From NCBI GenBank assembly GCA_963811105.1, contig CAWEPZ010000011.1, positions 1,312,001 through 1,376,000 on the forward strand: a stretch of 64,000 nt of DNA, in the 5' to 3' direction. Of this stretch, positions 10,963 to 27,023 are shown in pieces. The DNA comes from Candidatus Bathyarchaeota archaeon. Its GTDB lineage: Archaea > Thermoproteota > Bathyarchaeia > Bathyarchaeales > Bathycorpusculaceae. Positions within the stretch are counted from its first letter, which is position 1, and each line of letters opens with the position of its first letter. Made by a program: the position numbers and the translations under genes. The notes below the pieces were generated by a model that searched no databases, was not told where the DNA came from, and worked only from the letters and a program-made list of their open reading frames with translations.

Positions 10963-13500
10963 TTATGGTCGTTTTCTTAGTATCAGCACAATGACTGCAC
11001 CTATGATTAGGACTGCAATTATTATGGCGATTACTCCGGCTATGATTGTCATTGTGTAATCAGGTACTGCTTGCGCTTGGGTTGGCGTTTGTGTTGGTTG
11101 TGCATTTGCCACGACTGCTGCTGTTTCTGCCCATGAACTGCCGTATCCGCCGTTGCCTGCAAAGGTTGCTGTAATCTGGTAAGTTCCTGCGATTGTTGGG
11201 GTCCAAGTGTAGTGGAATGTTCCGCTGATGTCGCTTGTTGTGTCTCCGAGGTGTTGTGGGTTTCCGTTAGGGTCAGTTGCATCGATTGATACTGGTACAC
11301 CTGTGATTGTTATGTTGTGGTATATTCCGTCAATCGGGTGCTGCATATGCAAATATTCCATGTATGTGCCCATTGAATCGTCAGAAACGCATGCTTTACC
11401 CATCTGTGCTGGAGATTGGTCTAAGACTGTTCCAGAAATAATAGCGTTTGTACCAGCTGTTACTTGTGTTTGTGGAGCTGAAACAGAGGTAGCGCTTTCT
11501 CCTTTACCGAAAACGTACATGTACCCGTCATAACTATTGGACGCAGTCAAATAGCCATCTGCAACTGCACCTGGAGTCATGGGTCCAGTTATATTCCATA
11601 TGCCTTCGCCTGTAGTAGCGTTAATGCAATGTAGTTTCCAACCTCTTGTAATTGGCTCAGTTGGTGTGTGCTCAGTGTTGTATGTGTATACTTTTCCGTC
11701 AGCAACGAGGGTTGAGCCGTAGAAGGAATAAACCGTTGAACCGCTTGCATCAATGTATGGAGTTTCGTACGGGTTTGCTGGAGCTTCGTACTTCCAAATT
11801 ATTTTTCCTGTATCCCAATCGAAAGCATAGACACCGGAGTATGCTGCACGGAATATCATACCATAGGCTGAGGCTATATCATAAGCTCCAAAACCGGGTG
11901 CATCCCAAGGATAATCCATTCTGTCACTTACCCAAGCTACTGTTCCAGTTTGTGCATTCCAAGCATGAAAACGTCCGTCATCCATTAACACGGCAACTTT
12001 TCCATGATCAGCAACGTCTGAGCCTGCATTAAACATAACTAATCCTGCAACGTAATTATCCCACAACTGCGTACCTGTTGTCAAGCTAGCGGCTCTTACG
12101 CGTGTGCCATTGTATGAAGTCCCTTGCCCTCCTGCTCTAACCCATGATACGTCAACGCATACGTCTGATTGGAAGTCTTGTAAGCCGTTGCCAAATCCAA
12201 GGTTTGCCCATGGCCACGTTATGTTATTCATTATTCTCGAATTAAAGTCAGTGCTTGTCCCAAGCGTAGTCCAGTTGATCAAACGGTAGTTGTTTGCAGT
12301 AGCGTTTACGGTCTGTAAAGTCAATGCGTATCCGTTCCTGTAGTAAGTTCCAGAAGTCAGCACACCAGTTGAGACGTTGGCAGTAACTGCACCTGTGTAT
12401 GGATTATATTTTATCAGTCTTCCATTACTAATCGCTAAGAGACTCACGGAAGCGCCAGCATTGCCTGTGTTATCTGTAGCTACATATTCAATCGCTGTAG
12501 GTGCTATAACATCGGTTAAATCCCAATAAACCTGTCCAGTTCTTAGATCGTAGCATTCCCAAACGGTTGTTGGCAATGTTCGATAAGTCCCATTAAGCAA
12601 CGTTAACATTGGTTTCGTTAGAGTCTGGTAACATCGACCATCAAAGATTATGTTTGGCGTACCGCCACCACTGCTTAAAGAGACAATTCCTTGGTCACCG
12701 CCTATGAGTCCGGCAATGGCACCTTGACGTTTCCAGAGTATATGTGCAGAATCTGGCGCTTGAACCCATGGAACAAAGCCATAACTGTCGCTAAAATAGG
12801 GGTTTGTGTTAGGATAGAGTGCATCCCATTGTGGGCCTCCTCCGCTTGGTCCGTGCCATGGATAGTTTCCTGAGATTGGCCACCACTCTCGGTTTTCTGG
12901 TGAAATTGGTCTTGTCCAGTAATCAGTAGGCAAAGGAGCAACAGGCCATGACGCGATTAGATTCTCCTGAACAGTCAGATTTTGTTCTGCAGTTGAAGCA
13001 GGGGTAAAGTAATGCGAGACTGGATAAACTGTGCCTGATGTGTTAGTTACTAGATAGCCATTGAAGTATCTCCCCGCTGGGAAATATACGCCGGGAAAGT
13101 CAAATTTAAGCTTCCATGTGCCAACTTGGTCTGGATTGAACTCAAACCAATAGGTTCCGTCATTAACTTGAGAATTTACGGGTCCAATGGTTTGTTTGGT
13201 TCCGTCAGGTTTTGTGATTGTCACCACGTAACCTAGTTGCATTCGATCTTGTGCTGGCGGAGTAGTTGTCCATATGTTGACAAGGACGACTTGTTTCAGT
13301 CCTATAGGATTTGGTCTAAAACTGAGGTAGGCGCTTGGAGTGTAGGTTTCAGTTGCGGCAACTCCTGTTGGTAGCGGTCCTGCGGTGGGTTGTTGGGCAG
13401 CAATCTGAGCGTTGACAGGTTGAAATGAAAATAGTAATGAGGGCGAAATCATTAGCAGTATTATCAGTGTTGCATTTGTTATGATTTTCATTTTTTTCAT
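10963..13500 (-). CDS. secreted, membrane-anchored PQQ-like beta-propeller repeat protein (paralog 1)
   Basis: Signal peptide ending VNA-Q; WxxxTG propeller repeats; PTDYWTRP, ADHGK, EHTPTEPITRGW motifs; C-terminal TM plus RKRP. Confidence 0.88.
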   Translation of the reverse strand: MKKMKIITNATLIILLMISPSLLFSFQPVNAQIAAQQPTAGPLPTGVAATETYTPSAYLSFRPNPIGLKQVVLVNIWTTTPPAQDRMQLGYVVTITKPDGTKQTIGPVNSQVNDGTYWFEFNPDQVGTWKLKFDFPGVYFPAGRYFNGYLVTNTSGTVYPVSHYFTPASTAEQNLTVQENLIASWPVAPLPTDYWTRPISPENREWWPISGNYPWHGPSGGGPQWDALYPNTNPYFSDSYGFVPWVQAPDSAHILWKRQGAIAGLIGGDQGIVSLSSGGGTPNIIFDGRCYQTLTKPMLTLLNGTYRTLPTTVWECYDLRTGQVYWDLTDVIAPTAIEYVATDNTGNAGASVSLLAISNGRLIKYNPYTGAVTANVSTGVLTSGTYYRNGYALTLQTVNATANNYRLINWTTLGTSTDFNSRIMNNITWPWANLGFGNGLQDFQSDVCVDVSWVRAGGQGTSYNGTRVRAASLTTGTQLWDNYVAGLVMFNAGSDVADHGKVAVLMDDGRFHAWNAQTGTVAWVSDRMDYPWDAPGFGAYDIASAYGMIFRAAYSGVYAFDWDTGKIIWKYEAPANPYETPYIDASGSTVYSFYGSTLVADGKVYTYNTEHTPTEPITRGWKLHCINATTGEGIWNITGPMTPGAVADGYLTASNSYDGYMYVFGKGESATSVSAPQTQVTAGTNAIISGTVLDQSPAQMGKACVSDDSMGTYMEYLHMQHPIDGIYHNITITGVPVSIDATDPNGNPQHLGDTTSDISGTFHYTWTPTIAGTYQITATFAGNGGYGSSWAETAAVVANAQPTQTPTQAQAVPDYTMTIIAGVIAIIIAVLIIGAVIVLILRKRP

Positions 13501-14179: not shown

Positions 14180-16792
14180 ATGAAAATTAAATTTTCAGCA
14201 AATCTAAAAACGACTACAGCGATCGCTATTATACTAATGTTTTCTATGCTAATATCAACATTATCCGTTCAGTCGGTTAATGCTCAAACTACATATACAA
14301 ATTTGCAAGACGGCTCTTCCATGCCGTTACCCACCGGCGTGACAGCCGATGAAACAGTCACCACAAGCGCACATCTAAGCTATAGGCCTAATCCTGTAGG
14401 ACTCAATCAACCTATCCTAGTAAATCTTTGGATGCAACCGCCAATTCACGTAACTCACTACTTTAAGAACGCATTCATGGTGACATTCACAAAACCAGAT
14501 GGAACCACAGAGCAAGTCGGTCCATTATCTTCGTACCAAGGCGACTCAACAGCTTGGTTTGAAAAGAAAATGGATCAAATGGGCACATGGACCATAAAGT
14601 TTGACTTCCTAGGTGCATACTTCCCCGCAGGTAATTATACAATCGTTGCTGGTACTTTTTCAGGTCAAGGCGGTGTTAGTACAAATGCAGTATTCCCAAA
14701 TTCAATTTACTATGCCCCTAGTTCAGATGGCCCATACAACATCACCGTCCAACAAGACTTGATAGCCTCTTGGCCAACGGCACCACTACCAACCGACTAT
14801 TGGACAAGACCTATAGAACCACAAAACAGAGAATGGTGGCCAATCGCAGGTAACTATCCAGCAACTGGCATACTTGGAGGAGGCACTGATTGGCCAGCGG
14901 ACACAAATACTTACATGAGTAACTATGGATTCATCCCTTACGTTCAAGCGCCTAACACAGCACACATAGTATGGAAGCGACAAGGAGCTACAGCCGGTTT
15001 AATCGGTGGCGAAGCAGGGCAATACAGTATAACTACTGGTCCAGGAACCCCAAGCCTGGTCTATGCTGGAAGAGCATATCAAACGCTCACAAAAATCCTA
15101 AACGGAGTACAAACAAGCGTTTGGGAATGCTACGATTTGCGTACAGGCGAAGTTTACTGGGACCAAACAGGAGTCACTCAAGTACCCACATTCATTGGAT
15201 ATGATCCTCAAGCATTGAGTACCACTATAGCAGGAGCTGAGGCATCTTCATCTTGGGTTGCAAGTCTTGTCTTTGTCGGCAGCGGAAGGCTAATCAAATA
15301 CAACCCATGGATTGGCAGCGCAACACTGAACATCTCAATCGCTCCATTAACAACAGCTACACCATATGCTTACCCAAACTTCTTAAGCATTCAGAATATC
15401 GGTAGTACTGCAAGTCCAAACTACCGCTTAATTACTTGGACAGTAGCAACCGGCGGACTTTCAACAACCCCCATAGTACAATTCACAAGCAACGTCTCCT
15501 ACCCATTCGCAAGCATAGGCACTGCAGACTACGAATCGATGATAGCCGTTACAACACAAGGTATACGCGACATTCCCGCATCTGGACAAGTCGCTTCTTG
15601 GGAACCAACAGCAGCCGTCAACTCAGGAGTATCCTATAGCTACCGCATAATAGGAGTTAGCCTCTCAACCGGGCAAGTGCAGTTCAATGTCACAACCAAT
15701 CAGGCATACGGAGGAGTTTTCAGCGGAAGCACCGCAGTAGCTGACCATGGAAAATTCGCCCTCAGAATGAACGATGGACATTGGCATGCTTGGGACTTAC
15801 ACACAGGAAACGAGTTATGGACAAGTGAGATGTCTAGTTGGCCATGGGGTTCTTTTGGGATTTATGGCGTGACTTCATACGGCGGTCTTATTATTTATCC
15901 ACAGTACGACGGAGTTGTAGCATATAACTGGACTAACGGAAAAGTAGCTTGGCGATACCAATACGAAACCCCATATCCTTACGAAACTCCATATGAAGGC
16001 AACTATCCTTTCTATAGCTCCGCGGTTGACATTGCCGATGGAAAGCTCTATACATCCAATACTGAACACACACCAAGTAACCCCATTACTAGAGGATGGA
16101 AACTACATTGCATGAACGTAACTACAGGCGAAGGCATATGGAATATCACAGGTTCTTTCAGTGCAGGCGCTGTTGCTGACGGCTACTTAACCGCTTCTGA
16201 TGGCTATGATGGCTACATGTATGTTTTCGGCAAAGGACTCAGTTCAACTACAGTCTCAGCACCGCAGAATCAAATAATTGCAGGACAGAATGCCGTCATA
16301 TCGGGAACCGTGTTAGATCAATCTCCAGCACAGACGGGCAAAGCATGCGTTTCAGACAGTTCAATGGCTACATGGATGGAATACCTACATATGCAAATGC
16401 CAATAGACGGATTATCCCACAAAGTAATCATTACTGGTGTTCCAGTTTCAATCGATGCAGTTGACCCTAACGGAAATACAATACACCTTGCAACAGTTAC
16501 AAGCGATGTAAGTGGAACATTTGCTTATACATGGACACCAAGCCTAGCAGGCGACTGGAGAATTACTGCAACTTTCGCAGGAAGCGGCTCTTACGGCAGC
16601 TCATACGCAGAAGCGCATGCAAACGTTGTAAACGCACCTACAACAACAGTAACGCCAACCACAATAAGTTCAGCATCAGTAACCTCAACAGACGTAATGA
16701 CCTACATCGTCATAGCTGCAATCGCCATCATAATTGCTGTAGCAATAGTTGGCGCACTAATCATAAGGACTATCGCAAGAAAGCATTCATAA
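14180..16792 (+). CDS. secreted, membrane-anchored PQQ-like beta-propeller repeat protein (paralog 2)
   Basis: AAGGAG SD; same conserved blocks as paralog 1; Thr-rich linker and C-terminal TM. Confidence 0.88.
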   Translation: MKIKFSANLKTTTAIAIILMFSMLISTLSVQSVNAQTTYTNLQDGSSMPLPTGVTADETVTTSAHLSYRPNPVGLNQPILVNLWMQPPIHVTHYFKNAFMVTFTKPDGTTEQVGPLSSYQGDSTAWFEKKMDQMGTWTIKFDFLGAYFPAGNYTIVAGTFSGQGGVSTNAVFPNSIYYAPSSDGPYNITVQQDLIASWPTAPLPTDYWTRPIEPQNREWWPIAGNYPATGILGGGTDWPADTNTYMSNYGFIPYVQAPNTAHIVWKRQGATAGLIGGEAGQYSITTGPGTPSLVYAGRAYQTLTKILNGVQTSVWECYDLRTGEVYWDQTGVTQVPTFIGYDPQALSTTIAGAEASSSWVASLVFVGSGRLIKYNPWIGSATLNISIAPLTTATPYAYPNFLSIQNIGSTASPNYRLITWTVATGGLSTTPIVQFTSNVSYPFASIGTADYESMIAVTTQGIRDIPASGQVASWEPTAAVNSGVSYSYRIIGVSLSTGQVQFNVTTNQAYGGVFSGSTAVADHGKFALRMNDGHWHAWDLHTGNELWTSEMSSWPWGSFGIYGVTSYGGLIIYPQYDGVVAYNWTNGKVAWRYQYETPYPYETPYEGNYPFYSSAVDIADGKLYTSNTEHTPSNPITRGWKLHCMNVTTGEGIWNITGSFSAGAVADGYLTASDGYDGYMYVFGKGLSSTTVSAPQNQIIAGQNAVISGTVLDQSPAQTGKACVSDSSMATWMEYLHMQMPIDGLSHKVIITGVPVSIDAVDPNGNTIHLATVTSDVSGTFAYTWTPSLAGDWRITATFAGSGSYGSSYAEAHANVVNAPTTTVTPTTISSASVTSTDVMTYIVIAAIAIIIAVAIVGALIIRTIARKHS

Positions 16793-17697: not shown

Positions 17698-17889
17698 ATG
17701 GAAAAGATTGCTGAAGGCATTAGTGACTTTGGTGATTTTACAGCTATTTTGTTTAAAACCTCTGATGACCGTCATTTTGTTCGGTTCATGCCCTTGAATA
17801 GTAAAGAAAAACCACATGTCGAGTGGCTTTCCGGCGATGATCATTTAGAATGGCTCAGACGTTGGTTTCATGAGCCAACAATCGAATAA
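17698..17889 (+). CDS. small hypothetical protein
   Basis: ORF with plausible ATG at 17698 and TATA-like TTTATAT upstream. Confidence 0.5.
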   Translation: MEKIAEGISDFGDFTAILFKTSDDRHFVRFMPLNSKEKPHVEWLSGDDHLEWLRRWFHEPTIE

Positions 17890-18009
17890 TAAAAAACGAC
17901 TTTTGATTAAAAAAATGTAAATTGTTTAGACCTCCTCCGCCAACTGTCTGAATGCCGGGAGACTGTGTAGAAACGTTATCACCCAAAGAACGCGGATCCA
18001 TGTCGCGGC

Positions 18010-19860
18010 TTATTCAGTCATGTATGCAATATCGTCCCAGGGATGTCTGTAGAGACCTTGTTTGAGTCGCTTCTGGTCCAGAACATGGGCCGTCATGCCG
18101 ATTGTTCTGCCAACAACGAACAATCCGTTTAGTGCACCTATCTGAATACATTCATCTGCTTCATTCTTCGGAATCTCACTTCTCAACATATCGACAAAGC
18201 AAATTCCGATGCAACCGTCAACGTTTAGGATAAGGTTGTCTTTCTTAGCCGTTGTGAGTTTCTCAACCTCAAGGGCATAATCCAGAAGGGGGGTGACCTT
18301 GAAGTGTTTCCTAGCATATTCCTTCAAAATTGTCACTCGCATATCAGGATTGTTGATATTTTTAACTAAGTGCCCTATTCCTTGGATGTTCTCACCTTTC
18401 GCTTTCATTTCCTCGACAAACTGTCCGGGAGTTAATCCCCTATCATAAGCATTAGAGAACATCTGCGCGGCACCGTCGATGGCACCTCCGAATCTAGGAC
18501 CTATAGTGAGCATTCCACTCGCGACTGAGGAGATCAAGTCTCTACCTGCCCTAGCCGCGACTATAGCGTTGTGTGCACCCGAAACTGCAGGTCCGTGATC
18601 AGCCGTCACCATTATGGCCATTTCTATGAATTTCGTTGCATATTCCGGAAATTGACGCTTGAACCAGAGGATACTGAGTACGCCACCGATTCCTATGTCT
18701 TTCTTGAATGCCTCGGAAATCGGCATTTTCCCATAAAGCAGTTCTTCACCCCGGTCATCAGAGATTGTGCATATGAAATTGGCTGGTTTCCTGATTAAGC
18801 CTTCCTTCACAGCCTTAGCGTAGTCCATCGGGACCCTTGGCACACAGGGTTCGGGCTTTGGTTTGATAATTCCCTTCGCAACAAGAAGCTCATAAGTCTC
18901 CCTTATCTTTTGGTCATAGTCATCATATGAGTTGGGAACTATAGCCCCAGCTTTCCTAAGTGCCGCGTTCTTTGCATCCGCAGTCTCCACCTCATTTCCT
19001 GCTTTCGCTCCAGCATGCCCAAACTGAACTTCAGTTTTGAATGCCTTCGAACAGGTTCCAGTAACCCAAATCACCAGAGGCTTTGTTATCTTCTTGTTTT
19101 TAAGCGCTTCGGCAATCTCGTACTCGCCGCTGCCGCCTACTTCACCCAAGCATACCAGCATCTTAATTTCAGGAATACTCTCAAACCTGAGAAGATGATC
19201 TAGTAGACTTGAACCAGGATATGTATCTCCTCCGATTGCTATACCCTCATAAAGACCATCAGTATTTCTGGCGAGAATATTATATGCTTCGTTGCTTAGC
19301 CCTCCCGACTTAGAGACGAATCCCACGGAACCAGGTCTGTGAAGTTTGGAATCTATAATGTTTTCAATCGTGCCGCCAGCGTTGCCAATTTTGAAGCAAC
19401 CGGCCTTTATTCCTCCCACAGTTGCAGGGCCAATTATTACTTTTCCAAGAGCTTTGGCCTTCGCTGTGAGCAGCTTCATCCGTCTCTCAGGCACTCCCTC
19501 CGCAATTATCACGATAGTCCTTATCTGCGGTATGGACAGCGTTTCCTCGGTTGAAGATGCTGCCGACCTGAATGATGCGAAGTTTATCAGCACATCAACG
19601 TTAGGATGCATCTTGGCGGCTTTCTCTATGGTTTTGTAAATAGGTATTAGGATTTCGCGTTTTCCGAAGAAGAACTTTGCAAAGCTATCAGCTCCAGTTG
19701 GGTTGATTATTGCGGCAACTGAAGGTGTCTCGCGACCTGAAGCATAGTCGAAGTCTAGCATTCTCTGTGTTGCAGCAACTTGGTTATTGTAGATGAATGA
19801 TTGAGTGCTTCTATCGAACAGTTCATTGGGGTTCTTTTTGGCGTAATCTGCCTTTGCCAT
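18010..19860 (-). CDS. aclA: ATP citrate lyase subunit alpha (CoA-binding/phospho-His plus citryl-CoA lyase domain)
   Basis: [28 protein letters not shown] (phospho-His), [28 protein letters not shown]. Confidence 0.95.
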
Positions 19861-19861
19861 G

Positions 19862-21175
19862 TTACTTTGCTCCGTTTAATGCCATGGAAACAATTCTCGT
19901 CATGTGAGTTTCTGGTCCGTACACTTCAATCGGCACGCCCAATTTCTCGCCTAGAGCTCTCATTTGACACAAACCTTCCTGATAGTTCGGGCCGCCTCTT
20001 CGAACATATATCTTTACCCTATGCTCCCGAAGATTCTTTTGATATTCTTTAAGCGCTTTGATTATCCCCTTGAAGGTGCTGGCAACGTCAGTAAAATTTG
20101 CTATTCCGCCGCCAATAATAAGGAATTTGCCTTTAGGGTTCATCTTCCTTGTCATTAGGTTAAGTATTGTTTTGGCATAAAGATACGTGAACTCTTCACT
20201 TGGATCCCCGGAATATTCTCCATAGTTTGCCAGCTCACTCATGTATCCAAGGTCAGTTATGGTGTCCGCATAAATGACTGACGCTCCACCCCCTGCCACC
20301 ATTGTCCAGACTCTTCCTTCTGGATTAAGCACAGTTAGCTTAAGAGAAGCCCCAGTCTTTGAGTCTAAATCTTCAATAAAAGCTTCTTCTTTGGTTGGCA
20401 TTCGACCAAATGGTGTTGGGAACTCTATGTTGCCCCATTTCCCACCACTCTCGAATTCGGCTGTGCTATCCAATTTAGCTGCGAAGTCAAGAGGAATAAC
20501 GGAATCATTCGTTATTACAATCGGGTTTATCTCTAAATACGTAAAGTTTAGGTCTGCGTAGAATTTGAACAAAGCTTCTATGAAGCCTGAAAGGAGCTTT
20601 TTGCGTTCACCTGCGATTTTGCACAGTAGTTTTTTTTCGATTTCTTCTGAAGTGGGGGATGTTCCGATGGGTACTTCTAATCGTTCCGCTTTGATATCCA
20701 CGTTCCCGACATTTACTCCGCCTATGTTGTAGAACATGATTGTGTCGCCGTCTTTAGTCGACATTATAGCAAGGTAACATTCGTCCGAATCCTTGTGGGG
20801 TATCATTGGCTCGATGATAAAGTGTGTCAATTGTCCAACCGTTCCTTTGTCCGCAGGTTTTCCGTTGGCATCAAATTTGCCGTAGACAGTTATCGGGCTC
20901 TTCGATTTTTCTTCTATCCATTTCTTAACTTGGTTGTAATCCGCGTCAACAAGTATGAGTTTGTTCTTTCCCCTACGCTTTATAAGCTGATCAGGTTTGA
21001 CAACCAACTTCTCAGTAGAAAGCCACTTATACTGATTAGGCAACTTGGCCAAGTCGGTATCTGGCCCGACAGAAACAATCTTATCTTGAATATAGTATTT
21101 TCCTTCCGAGTAGTCGTTGAAAAGACGGGCGAGCATGCGCTTGCCGTCGGCTTCTCTGATTGCTTTATGCGCCAT
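19862..21175 (-). CDS. aclB: ATP citrate lyase subunit beta (ATP-grasp plus citrate-binding domain)
   Basis: [54 protein letters not shown]. Confidence 0.95.
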
Positions 21176-21188
21176 TCATATTTCTCCT

Positions 21189-22406
21189 CTACTCAATCTT
21201 CTTTCTGAGCCTTTTTGCCACTTCCGCAATGAATTCTTCAGTATAAGCCTTCTTATTTCTTGGGTCTGGTGAGACAACAGCCATCAAGTCACCCGTCATA
21301 ATCCCGCTTTCTACAGTCTCAAGAGCTGCATCTTCCAGCTTTTTCGCAAAGTCCACGACTTCTGATGTCTTATCCAGTTCGCCCCTTTTTCTTAAGCAAC
21401 CAGTCCAAGCAAATATCAAAGCCATTGAGTTGCTTGAAGTTTTTTCACCCTTCAAATACTTGTAATAATGCTTCTGAACTGTTCCATGAGAAGCTTCAAA
21501 CTCGTAGTAGCCTTGCGGGCTAACAAGTACGGAAGTCATCATTGCCAAGCTGCCATAAGCTGATCCTAGCATATCGCTCATAACGTCGCCATCATAGTTC
21601 TTGCATGCCCAGAGCAAACCGCCTTCTGTCTTCATGATTCTAGCTATGGCGTCATCGATAAGTGTAAAAAAGTAATCAAGTCCCGCGTCTTTGAATTTTG
21701 ATTTCCAGTTTTTCTCATATTCCTCTTCAAATATCTTGCGGAACTGTGCATCGTACGTCTTAGATATGGTATCCTTGGCACCAAACCACAAATGAATCTT
21801 CTGATCATACGCATAAGTAAAACACGCCTTCGCAAAACTCTCTATGGATTTATCGGTATTATGAATGCCTTGAATAATGCCCGACCCTTTGAAGTCCTGA
21901 ATGGTTCCACGCCAAAGCTCTTTGCCAGCGCTGTTTGTGAAAACCATCTCGGCTTTTCCAGCTTCCGGAACCCTGTACTCACAGTTTTTATAAACGTCAC
22001 CGTAAGCATGTCGGCCGATATGGATTGGTTTTTTCCAAGATTTGACGGATGGCGAAATGTTGTTAACCAAAATCGGCGCCCTAAAAACTGTGCCGTCAAG
22101 TGCTGCTCTGATGGTCGCATTGGGACTGCTCCATTCTTTTTTAAGGTTGTATTCTTTCACCCGGTCCTTGTTCGGCGTAATTGTGGCACATTTTACACCC
22201 ACACCGAATTTCTTTATGGCTTCCGCTGCTTCAAGGGTTATTTTATCATCTGTCGCATCCCTTCTCTTTAGCTGCAAGTCGTAGTAGGCAAGGTTCATAT
22301 CTAGGTAAGGCAAAAGCAGCTGATCCTTAACCATTTGCCACATCACTCGAGTCATTTCGTCGCCGTCTATTTCGACGATTGTTGTCTTTACTTTTATTTT
22401 ACTCAA
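21189..22406 (-). CDS. icd: isocitrate dehydrogenase, type II (eukaryote-like), probably NADP-dependent
   Basis: [41 protein letters not shown]. Confidence 0.95.
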
Positions 22407-22424
22407 TAAGATTCCTCTTTTTTA

Positions 22425-24356
22425 CTACTTGACCGTATACGGGAGAAGACCGCCAGCGAAGAGAATGTCTTTCTGTCTCTGGGAAAGATTGTATCCAAGC
22501 TCGATTTCCAGATTTTTGGTCTTGTTGACTAAGATGATAGGTTCATTGCTCTGCAGCTTTTTCTTTAGATTTGGAATTTCAATCTCATCGCTTTGCTCTA
22601 TCTTGTCATAGTCAGCCATGTTCTTGAATGATAAGGAGATTATGCCAAAGTTTACAAGATTGGCTTCATGAATTCTCTCCACTGATTTGGCTATGATTGC
22701 TTTGACTCCAAGGTACATCGGACATAGCGCAGCGTGTTCTCTGGAGCTTCCTTGGCCATACGACTCGCCTGCAACTATAACAGTGGCTAGACCTTTTTTC
22801 TTGGCTTCCATTGCTCTGTTTGGGAATGTTTTGTCAATCGGTTCGAAAACATATTTTGAGTATTCTGGCACATTAGAGCGGTACTTAAGTCTGGCTCCAG
22901 CAGGCATTATGTGATCAGTTGTAATTTTATCGCCGACTTTTATGCCGACAATACCTTTTATTTCTTCAGGCATTTTATCGTTGACTGGCGGCGTTCCAAT
23001 GTTCGGTCCTCTAACAATTTCAGTATTTCTGTCAGTATCCTTTGGGAAGATAAACATGGAGTCATCTATGAGGAATTTGGTTGGCGTTCTGATATTCGGG
23101 TACTTGATGTCTGTTTTTCTGGGATCGGTGAATTTTCCTGTGATTGCTGATACGGCAGCAACTTCTGGGCTTACAAGGTAAACCTGAGCATCCGATGTGC
23201 CGCTTCTTCCTTCGAAGTTTCTGTTGCTTGTTCTAAGGGATACGGCGTTGGTTTTTGGGCTTTGGCTGTTGCCTATACAAAATCCGCATGTTGCTTCGAG
23301 CAGTCTAGCGCCTGAATCTAGCAAATCAGAAAGGTAATCATCTTTTGCTATCATTTGCAGAACTTGTCTTGAACCTGGAGCAACGCCGAATGATACGTCA
23401 GGATGAACTTTTTTGCCCTTCATTATTTGGGCTACCGTGGCTATTTCTTTGTAAGAAGAATTGGTGCATGAGCCAATCATCACTTGATCAACCTTCAGGT
23501 CCTTCATATCACTGACTTTGACTGTGTTTCCTGGGCTATGTGGTGCCGCCGCAAGAGGTTCCAATGCGCAAAGATCAATGTCCTCAACCCTGTCGTACTC
23601 TGCATCGTCGTCAGCTTTCAGTTCAATCCAATCTGCCTCTCTATCCTGTGCCTTGAGAAACTTTCTTGTTTCTTCGTCTGAGGGAAATATGGAGGTTGTG
23701 ACACCCATCTCTGCACCCATGTTGGTGATTGTGGCTCTCTCAGGAACTGTGAGATTCTTTACGCCAGGCCCCGCGTATTCAATTATGACGCCGACATTGC
23801 CCTTAACTGTAAACAGCTCAAGCATCTTTAAAACAACATCTTTGGCGCTTACCCAAGGCTGAAGTCTGCCCTGCAGATTTATCTTGTAAACTTTTGGGCA
23901 TGTTAAATAGAATTCACCGCCTCCCATGGCAACAGCAACATCTAATCCTCCGGCGCCTATGGCTATCATGCCTATGCCGCCTCCAGTCGTTGTATGGCTG
24001 TCGGAGCCTAAGAGCGTCTTACCAGGTTTGCCGAACCTTTCCAAATGGACTTGATGACATATTCCATTTCCTGCCTTAGAGTAAACTATACCATATTTTG
24101 CGGCTACTGTCTGAAGGTATTTGTGATCGTCGGCGTTCTCGAAACCCACCTGGATGGTATTGTGATCTACATAACTAACAGAAAGCTCAGTTTTTACTTG
24201 CTTCAGGTCCATTGCCTCGAACTGCAGGTACGCCATCGTTCCTGTGGCATCCTGAGTTAAGGTTTGATCAATCTTTATACCTATCTCAGTACCTGGAACG
24301 TATTCACCCACTACCAGATGTTTTTCTAATATCTTTCGTGTAAGAGACTTGCCCAT
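22425..24356 (-). CDS. acn: aconitate hydratase (short, about 640-aa type)
   Basis: DQTLTQDATG, GICHQVH, GSDSHT, GSCTN, CGFCIG ([4Fe-4S] Cys), TTDHIMPAG, GSSREHA. Confidence 0.93.
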   Translation of the reverse strand: MGKSLTRKILEKHLVVGEYVPGTEIGIKIDQTLTQDATGTMAYLQFEAMDLKQVKTELSVSYVDHNTIQVGFENADDHKYLQTVAAKYGIVYSKAGNGICHQVHLERFGKPGKTLLGSDSHTTTGGGIGMIAIGAGGLDVAVAMGGGEFYLTCPKVYKINLQGRLQPWVSAKDVVLKMLELFTVKGNVGVIIEYAGPGVKNLTVPERATITNMGAEMGVTTSIFPSDEETRKFLKAQDREADWIELKADDDAEYDRVEDIDLCALEPLAAAPHSPGNTVKVSDMKDLKVDQVMIGSCTNSSYKEIATVAQIMKGKKVHPDVSFGVAPGSRQVLQMIAKDDYLSDLLDSGARLLEATCGFCIGNSQSPKTNAVSLRTSNRNFEGRSGTSDAQVYLVSPEVAAVSAITGKFTDPRKTDIKYPNIRTPTKFLIDDSMFIFPKDTDRNTEIVRGPNIGTPPVNDKMPEEIKGIVGIKVGDKITTDHIMPAGARLKYRSNVPEYSKYVFEPIDKTFPNRAMEAKKKGLATVIVAGESYGQGSSREHAALCPMYLGVKAIIAKSVERIHEANLVNFGIISLSFKNMADYDKIEQSDEIEIPNLKKKLQSNEPIILVNKTKNLEIELGYNLSQRQKDILFAGGLLPYTVK

Positions 24357-25088
24357 AATCGTCCCGTCCTTTGGAAAGGATTTGTCTTTCTTTTGTACAT
24401 ATAAAGGTTGTCAATTTATAGAACCAAGGGCATGCGCCTATTTACTTAAAAAAAATATTAAGTTCAAATTCTTGAATCATAAAAGTAAAAAAAAGAAATG
24501 AAACTGTCTGCATGATTATTAATGTCAAGTAATTAATTCTGACCGATACGATTGTGCAATCGCATTAGACGAAAAAAGATACCTATTATTGCCAACAACC
24601 TTCCCCAGACATCCTGCCAGTAATCATACGGATTCGAGTGTTAATTCAAGGAAGTAAGCTTTAGGATCAGTTGTTTTTTGTTGTAGCGCAACTATAACAT
24701 AACCTGGGAACAGTTATGCGACCGTCCGGAAGCATAATGGCCAAAAAACTTTCCTGAAAACATAAATTAAATATTTTCAAATTAATCTTCAATAGTTGAG
24801 AAGCCGCAAGTTTGTAATGCCAACGAACCACTTTTCGCACTTAAAGCGATTTTGATTCTGCAATTGCACCTTATATGCAAGGCTTCGAGTTAATGGAAAA
24901 ACAAACCTTCTTTTTCAACCTTTTGCATACTTTTTTAGCCGAAACTGTACGGAATTGTTCGAATCTAGCCGAATCCAAATGAATTCATATGCAACCTACA
25001 AATAACTTAAGCTTTGCTGCAAAAGATCATCCCCAAAACACAAAGAAAAAAATGTGCCACGCGCACCAGAAACACCTAAGTACTAACT

Positions 25089-27023
25089 TTAACTTTCATA
25101 CATCTGCCTAAAGATTTGCAGAGGGCTATCATTTTGCCTCTTATTCTTGAAGTAAAGTATGGTTGAAACAAGGACTAAAAATAGAACAGTTGTCAAGGTA
25201 ACGTATGTTTCAAAGCAGTTGTTACCATCCTTTGTTTTTTCATCGCTGTTAGGCATTACAATTGCGTTGCTGAGGTTTTGAATTCTCAAGTTTTTCATAA
25301 TTACTGCGCTATTCACGTTATTTGCTACCAAAATTAGTATTTTATTGTTGGCTAGATTATAAGGAGTTGCCACGTTTTCTATTAGGGTACCATTTCTATT
25401 GTTTATTTCAGTTATTACTTGATTCTCGGAGATACGTTCTGTAATAGTGTACCAATTGTTAGCTTCGATGGTTTCCGAAGCATTCAAGAAAGCCGGATTG
25501 ACTGCGTTTCCTTCCGTTATATTAGAAATGTCATAACTATTTAGCGCTCTCATATCTAATGAGCAATTATTGGGACCGTTGTCCTGAAGGAGAAAACAAA
25601 ATTGATTGTTTATAGTTTGATTAATATCATCGGGTAAGGTTAGAGGTTGCATGTTCGGGGGCACCTCTGTTGGTACTGTCAGTGTTTCTTCAGGAATTTT
25701 GATTGTTTGTATTGGCCTGTTTCTTCCAATTCTTATTGTCTCCTGGCGGGCCGGAATTGTTATTGTTTGTGACGAAATGTTAGACGCGGTGTGACCCGTT
25801 GGCATTATGATAAAATCGTAGCTGAAAGAAATATTTGTACTCAAAGGAATACTGAGAAAATTATCAACTCCTTGCAATGGACGAATAATATGCGGTAAAA
25901 TAACTGCGGATCCAAAGAGGTAGTAAGCAAGGTTAGTTTGTGTCAGAATATAATTGTACTCAGGCGTTTGGAACTGGACAAATGATTCAGGACCAACAAA
26001 AACCGTGAGTGTTTCGCTGTCATCACCCTCGTAGTTGTAGGCGCCACTCCAACTTGTTGTAATATAATATGTGCCCGCTGACGCGAAGTTCCAACCCAAA
26101 GCATAATTGCCATCGATATCTGTAACTGTTTCGAAGTAGCTGCTACAGGAACTATTTTTGCAGTATACCGTGACCTTCTGCCCGGCCATTACGGGCGAAA
26201 TTGATCCTGAAATGATAAACCCCCGCGATGTATTTTGGATGCTTGTTGGTTTTTGGGATAGATCTCCTGTAATAGAGGAAGAGAGAAGTTGACTACCTAA
26301 GCTCGCTGAAATCTCTCCTGGTGTTGAATTCTCGCTACTTTCAAGTTGAGTAATGACTGATTTAGTATTTACCAGCATTTGGGACTGATCACCTACCTTC
26401 CAGTCTGTTTCGGGAGTAGCTTCCGCAGTCCAGTAGGTTTTATTATTGTAATCAAAACCAGTCGGCGGAGTCAGGATATTATGATAAACGGGTGTATGTG
26501 GTAGGTATACTCCCACATTGACGTGTCCTGGATTTATCCCTGTGTAGCTAATCAAGACAACTTCTAAACCTCCTGCCTTCATGATGGAAGCCGCTAGAAG
26601 AGACAGGCCAACGCAATCTCCAGAATTGTTCACAAGGGTTTCAACTGGATATTTTACTCCCGTAACAACGTATGGGATTTGATGGACCAATGTTAGTACG
26701 GCATCGGCGAACCGTTCCTCACTGTAAGGAAGGGTGTTAGTAACTTCTTGAATGCGTTCTGCGATAGGTTCTACGGCTAGAGGTGTTACAAATCGTGCGT
26801 AATCAGTTTCGCAATTGATTGTGTGACTCAGGTTATTGTAATAGTTGTATAAGGAAGGTTGTATTGAGACATACATTTTTTGGCTAAGCAACCCATATTG
26901 GAATTGAAAACTGTAGTTTTTTTCATAGTTAGTTGCAGATGATATAGGTATCATGAAGGTAAGTATCAACATACAAAATATAGAGAAGACTGGCTTTATG
27001 ATACTTAAAGTGCATGATGACAC
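25089..27023 (-). CDS. secreted transglutaminase-like (Cys protease fold) protein with Ig-like domain and C-terminal TM
   Basis: Signal peptide; KYPVETLVNNSGDC, HVNVGV, WTAEAT putative Cys-His-Glu triad; VTDIDGNY Ig-like strand; TM plus KNKR. Confidence 0.75.
   Translation of the reverse strand: MSSCTLSIIKPVFSIFCMLILTFMIPISSATNYEKNYSFQFQYGLLSQKMYVSIQPSLYNYYNNLSHTINCETDYARFVTPLAVEPIAERIQEVTNTLPYSEERFADAVLTLVHQIPYVVTGVKYPVETLVNNSGDCVGLSLLAASIMKAGGLEVVLISYTGINPGHVNVGVYLPHTPVYHNILTPPTGFDYNNKTYWTAEATPETDWKVGDQSQMLVNTKSVITQLESSENSTPGEISASLGSQLLSSSITGDLSQKPTSIQNTSRGFIISGSISPVMAGQKVTVYCKNSSCSSYFETVTDIDGNYALGWNFASAGTYYITTSWSGAYNYEGDDSETLTVFVGPESFVQFQTPEYNYILTQTNLAYYLFGSAVILPHIIRPLQGVDNFLSIPLSTNISFSYDFIIMPTGHTASNISSQTITIPARQETIRIGRNRPIQTIKIPEETLTVPTEVPPNMQPLTLPDDINQTINNQFCFLLQDNGPNNCSLDMRALNSYDISNITEGNAVNPAFLNASETIEANNWYTITERISENQVITEINNRNGTLIENVATPYNLANNKILILVANNVNSAVIMKNLRIQNLSNAIVMPNSDEKTKDGNNCFETYVTLTTVLFLVLVSTILYFKNKRQNDSPLQIFRQMYES

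Follow-up and report, generated by a model that had tools for sequence, protein, structure and literature searches.

A gene cassette for aconitase, isocitrate dehydrogenase and ATP citrate lyase stands where sister species of a Bathyarchaeial genus have citrate synthase

Gene content of the locus

In this work, we describe a compact block of four genes, encoding an aconitase, an isocitrate dehydrogenase (IDH) and the two subunits of ATP citrate lyase (ACL), in the genome of Candidatus Bathyarchaeota archaeon (assembly GCA_963811105.1; 3.49 Mb in 15 contigs, 96.65% complete, 4.3% contamination). The block, from here on the cassette, is found within a window of 64,000 nt, this being the whole stretch of DNA analysed, which corresponds to positions 1312001-1376000 of contig CAWEPZ010000011.1 (C11:1312001-1376000 in our numbering), and it stands where sister species have citrate synthase (CS). 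All four genes are located on the reverse strand: acn (22425..24356, 643 aa, ATG start) is the first one, followed by icd (21189..22406, 405 aa, TTG start), aclB (19862..21175, 437 aa, ATG) and aclA (18010..19860, 616 aa, ATG), with gaps of 18, 13 and 1 nt in the ORF list of the window. Given this operon-like packing, the four genes are likely co-transcribed. Gene identities, common orientation and gaps had been proposed in a first-pass annotation of the same DNA, and are borne out by the ORF list and by the Pfam and NCBIfam assignments.

Acn is an aconitate hydratase of the PRK07229/TIGR01342 type, matching NF005558 over residues 1-641 with 955.8 bits, against a cut-off of 612, and featuring PF00330 and PF00694 in a single chain. 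Icd is a homodimeric type II (eukaryote-like) NADP-isocitrate dehydrogenase: it reaches 625.3 bits with NF006156 (cut-off 335) and 511.1 with TIGR00127, nadp_idh_euk (cut-off 397), as opposed to 22.2 with the type I prokaryotic model TIGR00183, whose cut-off is 567. Its alignment is full-length, residues 1-404 falling on profile positions 1-402, and the top solved chains are type II IDHs, the best one being 4aou (606 bits). AclB, the small subunit of ACL, joins an ATP-grasp domain (PF24948, 283.6 bits versus 83) to a citrate-binding one (PF16114, 301.4 versus 26.8); the latter, used throughout as ACL-specific marker, matched in none of 14 control genomes. AclA, the large subunit, contains in one chain of 616 aa a CoA-ligase part (PF00549, Ligase_CoA, residues 182-307) and a part homologous to CS, corresponding to citryl-CoA lyase (PF00285, residues 391-604).

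Comparison with solved proteins shows AclA aligned to human ACLY in one stretch over residues 11-614 (834 bits), and to the archaeal chains 6hxi_B (831 bits) and 6znw_B (827 bits), the latter named Methanosaeta concilii ACLY-B; 6hxj_B, which we take to be a Chlorobium chain, is far more distant (399 bits). For AclB, the scores are 483 bits with the N-terminal part of human ACLY, 464 with the archaeal 6hxi_A and 155 with 6hxj_A. In the alignment of AclA to human ACLY, a stretch of 24 residues and the LILNVDG one are conserved, and over 29 residues plus LILNVDG the two proteins are identical or nearly so, the residue after GIGH being L here and R in human. We take GHAGA to be the phosphohistidine loop, and the His, Arg and Asp residues to be the lyase site, these catalytic roles being known from the structural literature. 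By domains and conserved stretches, AclBA is a two-subunit ACL of the eukaryote/Methanothrix type, with a predicted activity to match. The domain layout is the same in the Methanothrix enzyme (Methanosaeta concilii ACLY-A/B, 6hxi/6znw) and in human ACLY; the human protein, however, is a single fused chain, while ACL is here composed of two subunits. Gene context also differs: in Methanotrichaceae a LeuC-like gene comes after aclBA, with neither cassette aconitase nor IDH, whereas here it is packed together with acn and icd. A eukaryotic affinity of the cassette IDH, similar to that of ACL, was considered and found unsupported, since its three best solved chains, presumably bacterial, score 549-606 bits, against about 414-416 for IDHs named as mitochondrial or cytoplasmic.

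Genes of the tricarboxylic acid cycle in the rest of the genome

An inventory of tricarboxylic acid (TCA) cycle genes was obtained by six-frame family searches of the whole genome. The CS family (PF00285) gave a single match, AclA itself, and no canonical CS was found, in agreement with the first-pass annotation, which had described the operon as lacking this enzyme. Two genes were found for the aconitase family, LeuC and the cassette acn, and two for the Iso_dh family, LeuB and the cassette icd. Ligase_CoA (PF00549) matched AclA alone, so that SucCD is missing, ACD-type succinyl-CoA synthetases and CoA-transferases being outside the search; class I fumarase (PF05681) had no match in the genome. 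Likewise, there was no match to the archaeal type of phosphoenolpyruvate carboxylase (PEPC), the search including neither phosphoenolpyruvate carboxykinase (PEPCK) nor bacterial PEPC, and PycB-like genes are lacking among the five HMGL-like ones. The three POR_N matches correspond to pyruvate:ferredoxin oxidoreductase (best model below cut-off), 2-oxoacid:ferredoxin oxidoreductase and IorA; the second is of the Sulfolobus type (NF041170, 828 bits versus 800), with the beta subunit 1 kb downstream. CdhC, a subunit of acetyl-CoA synthase, and dapA-dapB-asd are also encoded.

Two genes initially regarded as members of the reductive branch, "FumC" and "MDH", had to be discarded as such after NCBIfam scoring: the single candidate class II lyase is aspartase-like (NF008909, 638.8 versus 510), its fumC_II score of 521 falling below the cut-off of 665, and the sole Ldh/Mdh gene (Ldh_1_N) scores best as L-lactate dehydrogenase (LDH). 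Because SucCD and class I fumarase are missing, the class II lyase is aspartase-like and the Ldh/Mdh gene is LDH-like, the full reductive TCA (rTCA) cycle is not encoded and cannot be closed with canonical enzymes, which are those covered by our searches, non-canonical substitutes not having been searched for. The co-occurrence of a canonical CS with a complete rTCA set, which the first-pass annotation had named as speaking against a replacement of CS by ACL, was looked for and not observed, neither CS nor SucCD nor class I fumarase being present. It is therefore hardly credible that the cassette forms the core of a complete rTCA cycle, serving autotrophic CO2 fixation. Such a role might be suggested by the joint presence of ACL, 2-oxoacid:ferredoxin oxidoreductase, pyruvate:ferredoxin oxidoreductase and an SdhAB-type flavoprotein/iron-sulfur pair; apart from the gaps just listed, however, the aspartase-like lyase is clustered with sdhAB, archaeal PEPC and PycB are both missing, an acetyl-CoA synthase is already available in CdhC, and the cassette is unlinked to other rTCA genes in the phyla examined.

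The sdhA and sdhB genes and the aspartase-like lyase lie in a row (C9:238380-242243 of this genome, G000; locus L107), an arrangement which suggests an electron sink leading from aspartate to fumarate and succinate, rather than a segment of the TCA cycle. At this locus, sdhA is read in two overlapping frames (204 and 482 aa), and an upstream ORF of 271 aa has no family match. Similarly, the ldh/mdh-like gene (C1:77843-78797; L109:1480-2434) is split into frames of 154 and 184 aa at an A-rich stretch. Calling these two genes pseudogenes would be unsafe, as each contains one frameshift, amid short runs of A or T such as accompany assembly indels; the splits are probably homopolymer indels of the assembly. 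The alpha and beta genes of the 2-oxoacid:ferredoxin oxidoreductase (C11:577345-581299; L108) flank an ORF of 351 aa on the opposite strand, with no Pfam match. A citramalate-synthase-like gene was also noticed (region C11:902441-903259; L019:763-2331), scoring 437 bits with TIGR00977, just below the cut-off of 450; among the matches listed for 41 genomes of the genus, only this genome and G383 reach that score.

Alternation with citrate synthase within the genus

In a sample of the class, 128 of 401 genomes have a CS-family match. For the genus, sampled in 41 genomes including this one, PF00285 was combined with PF16114 in order to separate CS from ACL. ACL alone was found in 8 genomes, full-length CS alone in 14, both in 2 (G342 and G383) and neither in 17: 22 of the 24 carriers thus have just one of the two, and the cassette nearly excludes CS within the genus. 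The CS forms tested all belong to the TIGR01800 subfamily. The order acn-icd-aclB-aclA is shared by every ACL genome of the genus (10) and of the sister genus (3), 11 of these 13 cassettes being intact; as it is also seen in 25 of the best 80 related loci from other genomes, discussed below, the arrangement is not a matter of chance. Most cassettes of the two genera adjoin the same radical-SAM/MgtE/PhoU genes, wherever the fetched stretch reaches that far. In the neighbouring family of the same order, and in one other family, the block is reduced to acn-aclB-aclA, without icd. Two genomes, G232 (L022) and G342 (L024), have a cassette fragmented into numerous short frames; in G342, which is one of the genomes also having CS, four TGA and one TAA codons fall within the icd match. 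Either real decay or an error-rich assembly may be responsible.

The cassette took the place of an aconitase and an IDH-like gene resident in the genus. At the threshold used, the PRK07229 aconitase is present as a single copy in 38 of the 41 genomes, and in two copies in none (56 of 60 genomes have it in the family), and two kinds may be told apart: the cassette kind, 84-89% identical to the window protein, is found in the ACL genomes and in G175 and G308, and identity to that protein drops to 54-59% for the resident kind. In 24 of the 34 loci examined the resident aconitase adjoins pyrF, encoding OMP decarboxylase, often along with a metallophosphoesterase and an inositol-monophosphatase-like gene; the pyrF locus of this genome has no aconitase, nor could a remnant be detected by tblastn. 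In the same way, all 41 genomes contain LeuB and exactly one further Iso_dh member, which is the type II IDH in 14 genomes (the 10 with ACL, plus G175, G193, G308 and G330) and a resident protein of 340-350 aa, scoring 352-373 bits, in the others. The resident Iso_dh stays below all NCBIfam cut-offs, with 398 versus 540 for homoisocitrate dehydrogenase, 389 versus 410 for LEU3_arch and 353 versus 510 for IDH. Two genomes may be regarded as instructive intermediates: in G308 (L076), the cassette acn-icd pair is found at the usual locus, without aclBA and with an unlinked CS; in G175 (L070), it has the opposite orientation with respect to the radical-SAM gene.

Spread across phyla

Scanning of GTDB species genomes revealed relatives encoded in no fewer than 531 stretches, Thermoplasmatota, Methanotrichaceae and DPANN contributing many of these, so that the statement of the first-pass annotation, according to which ACL is uncommon in archaea, was too strong. 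Taxon names are here the titles given by the submitters themselves, and some short contigs may be mis-binned. Arrangements were counted in the best 80 loci: 25 feature acn-icd-aclBA, 18 acn-aclBA, 2 icd-aclBA and 19 aclBA alone (11 of the latter are Methanobacteriota, for the most part Methanotrichaceae), while 17 are cut by a contig end. A cassette-type aconitase is located directly upstream of aclBA in 43 of the 63 related loci not cut in this way, 25 of them having the type II icd as well. The titles of cassette loci include Thermoplasmatota, Chloroflexota, Elusimicrobiota, Pseudomonadota, Myxococcota, Micrarchaeota and others.

Where the block has no type II icd, aclBA is adjoined by a monomeric IDH (PF03971) in 5 loci and by a type I Iso_dh in 5 more, unrelated forms of IDH having been recruited to the same block; loci L172 and L162, for example, show a monomeric IDH of 743 aa or a type I Iso_dh of 413 aa beside aclBA. 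No recurrent linkage of cassette loci to 2-oxoglutarate:ferredoxin oxidoreductase (KOR), fumarate reductase (FRD), succinyl-CoA synthetase (SCS) or malate dehydrogenase (MDH) was seen across the phyla examined. Because aconitase and some form of IDH travel with aclBA, while KOR, FRD, SCS and MDH do not recur, the conserved unit is the three-step segment connecting acetyl-CoA and oxaloacetate to 2-oxoglutarate, i.e. the citrate branch, and not the reductive cycle.

The CS content of 50 ACL genomes outside the family, for which no completeness figures are given, was also determined. Only AclA-type matches were found in 28 of them and a canonical CS in 8; 7 have a match of the size of citryl-CoA lyase (one of these along with CS), and 8 a divergent CS-family protein scoring 128-145 bits. 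The last group (G401-G404, G407, G409, G410 and G413, loci L121-L135) is mostly titled Thermoplasmatota, with two Methanobacteriota/Euryarchaeota; the matches are near full length, several being contained in frames of 718-841 aa.

Several lines of evidence point to horizontal transfer. A locus titled Methanomassiliicoccales archaeon UBA280 (Thermoplasmata) encodes proteins 84% (Acn), 85% (Icd), 79% (AclB) and 86% (AclA) identical to those of the window; 11 ORFs of its flanks could be matched in this genome, ten at 28-46% identity and the last at 75%. As to the organism itself, the nearest relatives of AclA come from metagenome-assembled genomes (MAGs) titled Bathyarchaeia or Bathyarchaeota, and the flanks of one Bathyarchaeial locus are 61-96% identical to this genome, at least 81% in 6 cases out of 7. 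Trees were built by quick LG+G4 searches, with SH-aLRT as sole support, and were midpoint-rooted. In the AclA tree (103 rows), the sequences of the family form one clade (support 100), nested within a Thermoplasmatota-rich clade of 40 rows (support 100), and Bathyarchaeial sequences from five further families are scattered over 4 or more other places. Monophyly of Bathyarchaeial AclA (32 rows) is rejected, with a loss of 614.7 log-likelihood units and a p-AU of 5e-6, the constrained group having been defined by taxonomy, but after the tree was seen.

In the aconitase tree (91 rows), the resident kind follows the genera; the cassette kind, in contrast, mixes the two genera, its next relatives being Thermoplasmata loci. 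Accordingly, identity of the resident aconitase is 80.4% within a genus and 73.7% between the two genera, the corresponding figures for the cassette aconitase being 87.7% and 88.0%, with 84.1% between the family and two Thermoplasmata loci. From these between-genus identities and from the aconitase tree, the cassette should either be younger in the family than the split of the genera, or have moved among them. Taken together, these data indicate that the cassette was acquired horizontally, with all genes arriving together; donor and direction of the transfer are not established by midpoint-rooted trees. The same conclusion had been drawn in the first-pass annotation from the type of IDH alone, and stands now on a far firmer basis, made of the two trees, the rejected monophyly and the 79-86% identity to Thermoplasmata; a vertical phylogeny, named there as evidence against transfer, is not what the trees show.

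The sister group of the Thermoplasmatota/Bathyarchaeia clade in the AclA tree is formed, with a support of 92, by rows bearing the names of fungal and dinoflagellate proteins. This fits the report of bioRxiv 10.1101/2024.05.29.596406 which, in the portion available, ascribes an archaeal affinity to the eukaryotic ACL and places ACLY beside Thermoplasmatota-E3.

Proposed role of the cassette

The cassette would catalyze three consecutive, individually reversible reactions, those of ACL (AclBA), aconitase and NADP-isocitrate dehydrogenase. We give about an even chance to a role as anabolic oxidative branch to 2-oxoglutarate, in which ACL would form citrate and yield ATP, a direction deduced from gene content. 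Acetyl-CoA, supplied by the Wood-Ljungdahl pathway or by fermentation, would react with oxaloacetate to give citrate, CoA and one ATP, ACL running backwards, and citrate would then be converted to 2-oxoglutarate for the synthesis of glutamate. We infer from the sequence data that citrate is made by ACL, and not by an unrecognised Re-citrate synthase.

Citrate synthesis is favoured because the cassette substitutes for a resident branch headed, in many sister species, by the practically one-way CS, and because ACL and CS are almost mutually exclusive within the genus. Moreover, the genome encodes the acetyl-CoA enzyme of the Wood-Ljungdahl pathway and needs 2-oxoglutarate, for which there is no canonical reductive route. 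The near-equilibrium, reversible nature of the ACL reaction also favours synthesis; its equilibrium was reportedly studied by Guynn and Veech in 1973, a work known to us from a reference list. In the accessible text of PMC12137691, the reaction is described as fully reversible.

The opposite direction is somewhat unlikely, and would have 2-oxoglutarate, derived from the fermentation of glutamate or peptides, or else imported citrate, as a starting point: the NADP-IDH would carboxylate 2-oxoglutarate reductively, isomerisation would lead on to citrate, and ACL would split the citrate, spending ATP, and the resulting acetyl-CoA and oxaloacetate would be directed to gluconeogenesis, lipid synthesis or acetate-linked ATP formation. 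An analogous flow is known from the reductive glutamine metabolism of hypoxic animal cells. In favour of cleavage, all three steps are reversible, and cleavage is the known role of the eukaryote-type ACL, the type found here. Many hosts of the cassette bear names such as Anaerolineae, Elusimicrobia, Thermoplasmata or DPANN, for which an anaerobic, heterotrophic way of life is generally reported; among the genomes surveyed, 5 have both CS and ACL, and a likely alternative citrate-forming enzyme, found across the family and discussed below, would make ACL dispensable for synthesis. On the other hand, in 13 of the 29 genus genomes without cassette-type aconitase, the resident pair which the cassette displaced is accompanied by the one-way CS, pointing to the same anabolic role, and the near exclusion of ACL and CS among carriers also speaks against cleavage. 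The 2-oxoacid:ferredoxin oxidoreductase could dispose of 2-oxoglutarate in a simpler way, and no citrate transporter turned up beside the cassette, where no search aimed at transporters was made.

A different source of citrate is suggested by two homocitrate-synthase-like proteins, present across the genus and in this genome as well. The first one (C13:78274-79638; L018:1036-2400, reverse strand) is 449-454 aa long and lacks the LeuA regulatory domain; orthologues, 71-90% identical, were detected throughout the family (60 of 60 genomes) and in no genome out of 19 belonging to other families. In the neighbouring family, which lacks this protein, 15 of 18 sampled genomes have a CS-family match. 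The second (C4:17603-18835; L020:1084-2316, reverse strand) is located next to porCAB, on a 19.3-kb contig ending 500 nt away; it is 410 aa long and 29% identical to the first, and its score range, 141-155 bits, is reached in 27 of the 41 genus genomes among the matches listed, 22 further matches being unlisted. Among solved structures, both proteins come closest to a chain that was deposited under the name of homocitrate synthase. No NCBIfam model names either of them, and a homologue search with the 454-aa protein returned generic names only.

Since dapA-dapB-asd covers the synthesis of lysine, these proteins would be free to act as Re-citrate synthase; a homocitrate pathway is not evident, because the diaminopimelate (DAP) genes are present and a second set of aconitase-family and Iso_dh-family genes is not. 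The family-wide protein could thus be regarded as a candidate Re-citrate synthase. Were this the source of citrate, ACL might be a near-equilibrium valve, working in both directions as set by the ATP/ADP and acetyl-CoA/CoA ratios, instead of replacing CS. We consider such a role quite unlikely. It would account for the 17 genus genomes lacking both CS and ACL, all of which keep an IDH-like gene and 15 of which pass the aconitase threshold (of the others, G151 has no aconitase match and G345 a fragment below cut-off), as well as for the distribution of the 449-aa protein, complementary to that of CS in the neighbouring family, and for the dispensability of homocitrate synthase in lysine synthesis. 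However, the similarity to the solved homocitrate synthase is just 177-188 bits, no family model supports the assignment, and the retention of a Si-type CS in 16 of the 41 genus genomes would be puzzling if a Re-citrate synthase were universal.

A number of observations weigh against citrate synthesis by ACL. Another source of citrate must exist in the genus, because of the 17 genomes without CS and ACL which nonetheless keep the downstream genes; ACL may therefore not be the sole source here either and, should the homocitrate-synthase-like candidate be active, would not be needed for synthesis, being left as a valve or as a cleaving enzyme. Exclusion is not complete, CS and ACL being found together in genomes of the genus (2) and of a neighbouring family (3); G175 has the cassette acn-icd pair with neither aclBA nor CS, and the divergent CS-family proteins found in 8 of the 50 outside genomes are uncharacterised. 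No oxaloacetate-forming carboxylase was identified, the search covering archaeal PEPC and PycB but neither PEPCK nor bacterial PEPC, and the direction of flux cannot be read from sequence. The suggestion, already made in the first-pass annotation, that ACL replaces CS is accordingly sustained as regards the lack of a canonical CS, and weakened by the CS- and ACL-free genomes and by the family-wide homocitrate-synthase-like protein.

Known systems and implications

All enzymes considered here are of known kinds, and ATP-yielding citrate formation has a precedent: Moeller, Schauder, Fuchs and Thauer reportedly described in 1987, in a work known to us by its title, a citric acid cycle of Desulfobacter postgatei in which an ATP-yielding ACL forms citrate. 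In that organism, ACL takes the place of CS and the energy of the thioester is kept as ATP; a canonical CS is likewise missing here, where a Re-type enzyme of another family is possible. D. postgatei, however, runs a complete catabolic cycle coupled to sulfate respiration, whereas SucCD, fumarase and a clear MDH are missing here, nothing implies a respiratory acceptor, and the role proposed is that of a short anabolic branch. The cassette could work as the first step of the D. postgatei cycle, its reverse activity being a prediction, without thereby belonging to that catabolic cycle.

2-Oxoglutarate is reached by the same three steps in the oxidative CS-aconitase-IDH branch of anaerobes, based on either Si- or Re-citrate synthase, and in the sister species, where an unlinked TIGR01800 CS accompanies the resident aconitase and the resident Iso_dh. 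The cassette differs in its first enzyme, which is non-homologous in mechanism, coupled to ATP and reversible, and in being made of xenologues for all three steps, joined in one operon-like block. For an anaerobic rhizarian lacking CS, a substitution of this enzyme by ACL has been proposed (bioRxiv 10.64898/2026.09.23.753574). As far as the available part of that source goes, the reasoning is the same as ours, ACL being present, CS absent and aconitase and IDH retained, and its authors also leave the direction open; that case, in contrast, concerns a eukaryotic organelle whose ACLY is fused, with neither an operon nor evidence for the transfer of a cassette.

ACL homologues have already been reported in Bathyarchaeota, according to the accessible portion of bioRxiv 10.1101/2022.10.25.513756; in 35 hot-spring Bathyarchaeia MAGs neither ACL nor CS was found, as stated in the excerpt available of PMC8407382. 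A search of the full-text literature, subscription journals being outside its scope, found no description of the acn-(icd)-aclBA cassette as a unit, nor of its transfer between Thermoplasmatota and Bathyarchaeia. The alternation of ACL and CS within a genus was not found described either, in a search whose scope did not include supplementary tables, where it may well be contained.

The four states observed within the genus (ACL cassette, CS, both or neither) constitute a natural experiment. Bathyarchaeia are among the most abundant archaea of anoxic sediments, and their central carbon metabolism is known from genomes only. In metagenome surveys, ACL genes are routinely scored as marker of carbon fixation by the rTCA cycle. 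Counting aclAB matches in this way would mislabel genomes such as this one, because ACL travels as an aconitase-(IDH)-ACL block in 43 of 63 untruncated loci and the rest of the cycle is not encoded here. If ACL does run backwards, one ATP would be saved per citrate, a relevant gain for organisms near the energetic limit, and a mechanism reported for one sulfate reducer would extend to many uncultured lineages. A broader proposal, rather improbable as it stands, is that acn-(icd)-aclBA is a mobile, energy-saving citrate branch, spreading among archaea and bacteria which live anaerobically and are starved of energy, and displacing the CS branch by recovering one ATP per citrate, and that no prokaryotic lineage is closer to eukaryotic ACLY than the Thermoplasmatota/Bathyarchaeia one, so that the eukaryotic enzyme may descend from such a cassette.

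Flanking regions and minor observations

The leader of the cassette (24357..24430, reverse strand) is A/T-rich and includes a putative archaeal promoter, with TATAAAT at about 24420-24414 and TTTATAT at about 24405-24399. A putative archaeal terminator (17880..17925, reverse strand) is suggested by oligo-T runs ("cattttttta...gtcgtttttta") some 90-130 nt past the aclA stop. Both were recognized from the letters. A scan for sigma-70 promoters and intrinsic terminators returned fewer sites than in shuffled sequences, but its consensus is bacterial and does not apply to archaea. Non-coding DNA, 732 nt long, separates acn from the upstream ORF 25089-27023, and no ORF of at least 100 aa is found between 16947 and 18010. 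As to marks of mobile elements, the flanks of the cassette contain just short, imperfect repeats, as might occur by chance, and neither integrases nor transposases were found among the neighbours scanned in the window.

Some relatives of AclA, 53-61% identical to it, are about 1,000-1,040 aa long (P0002, P0005, P0006, P0012 and P0268). Their interpretation as AclA-AclB fusions was rejected, since the two scanned (P0005 and P0268) lack AclB domains. Both contain two stretches of the CS domain, and P0005 also two Ligase_CoA; these proteins resemble an AclA to which a second, partial one is appended. In locus L181, titled as a Chloroflexaceae MAG, a separate aclB is located upstream of the long AclA-like gene. 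In the AclA tree, the long proteins group with eukaryotic ACLY.

Large ORFs flank the cassette on both sides: 10963-13500 (845 aa) and 14180-16792 (870 aa) on one, and 25089-27023 (644 aa) on the other. PQQ-like beta-propeller matches were found in the 845- and 870-aa ORFs, and weak Ig-like matches in the 845- and 644-aa ones. Paralogues of these large ORFs, 25-40% identical, lie near CS or the resident aconitase in some sister genomes.

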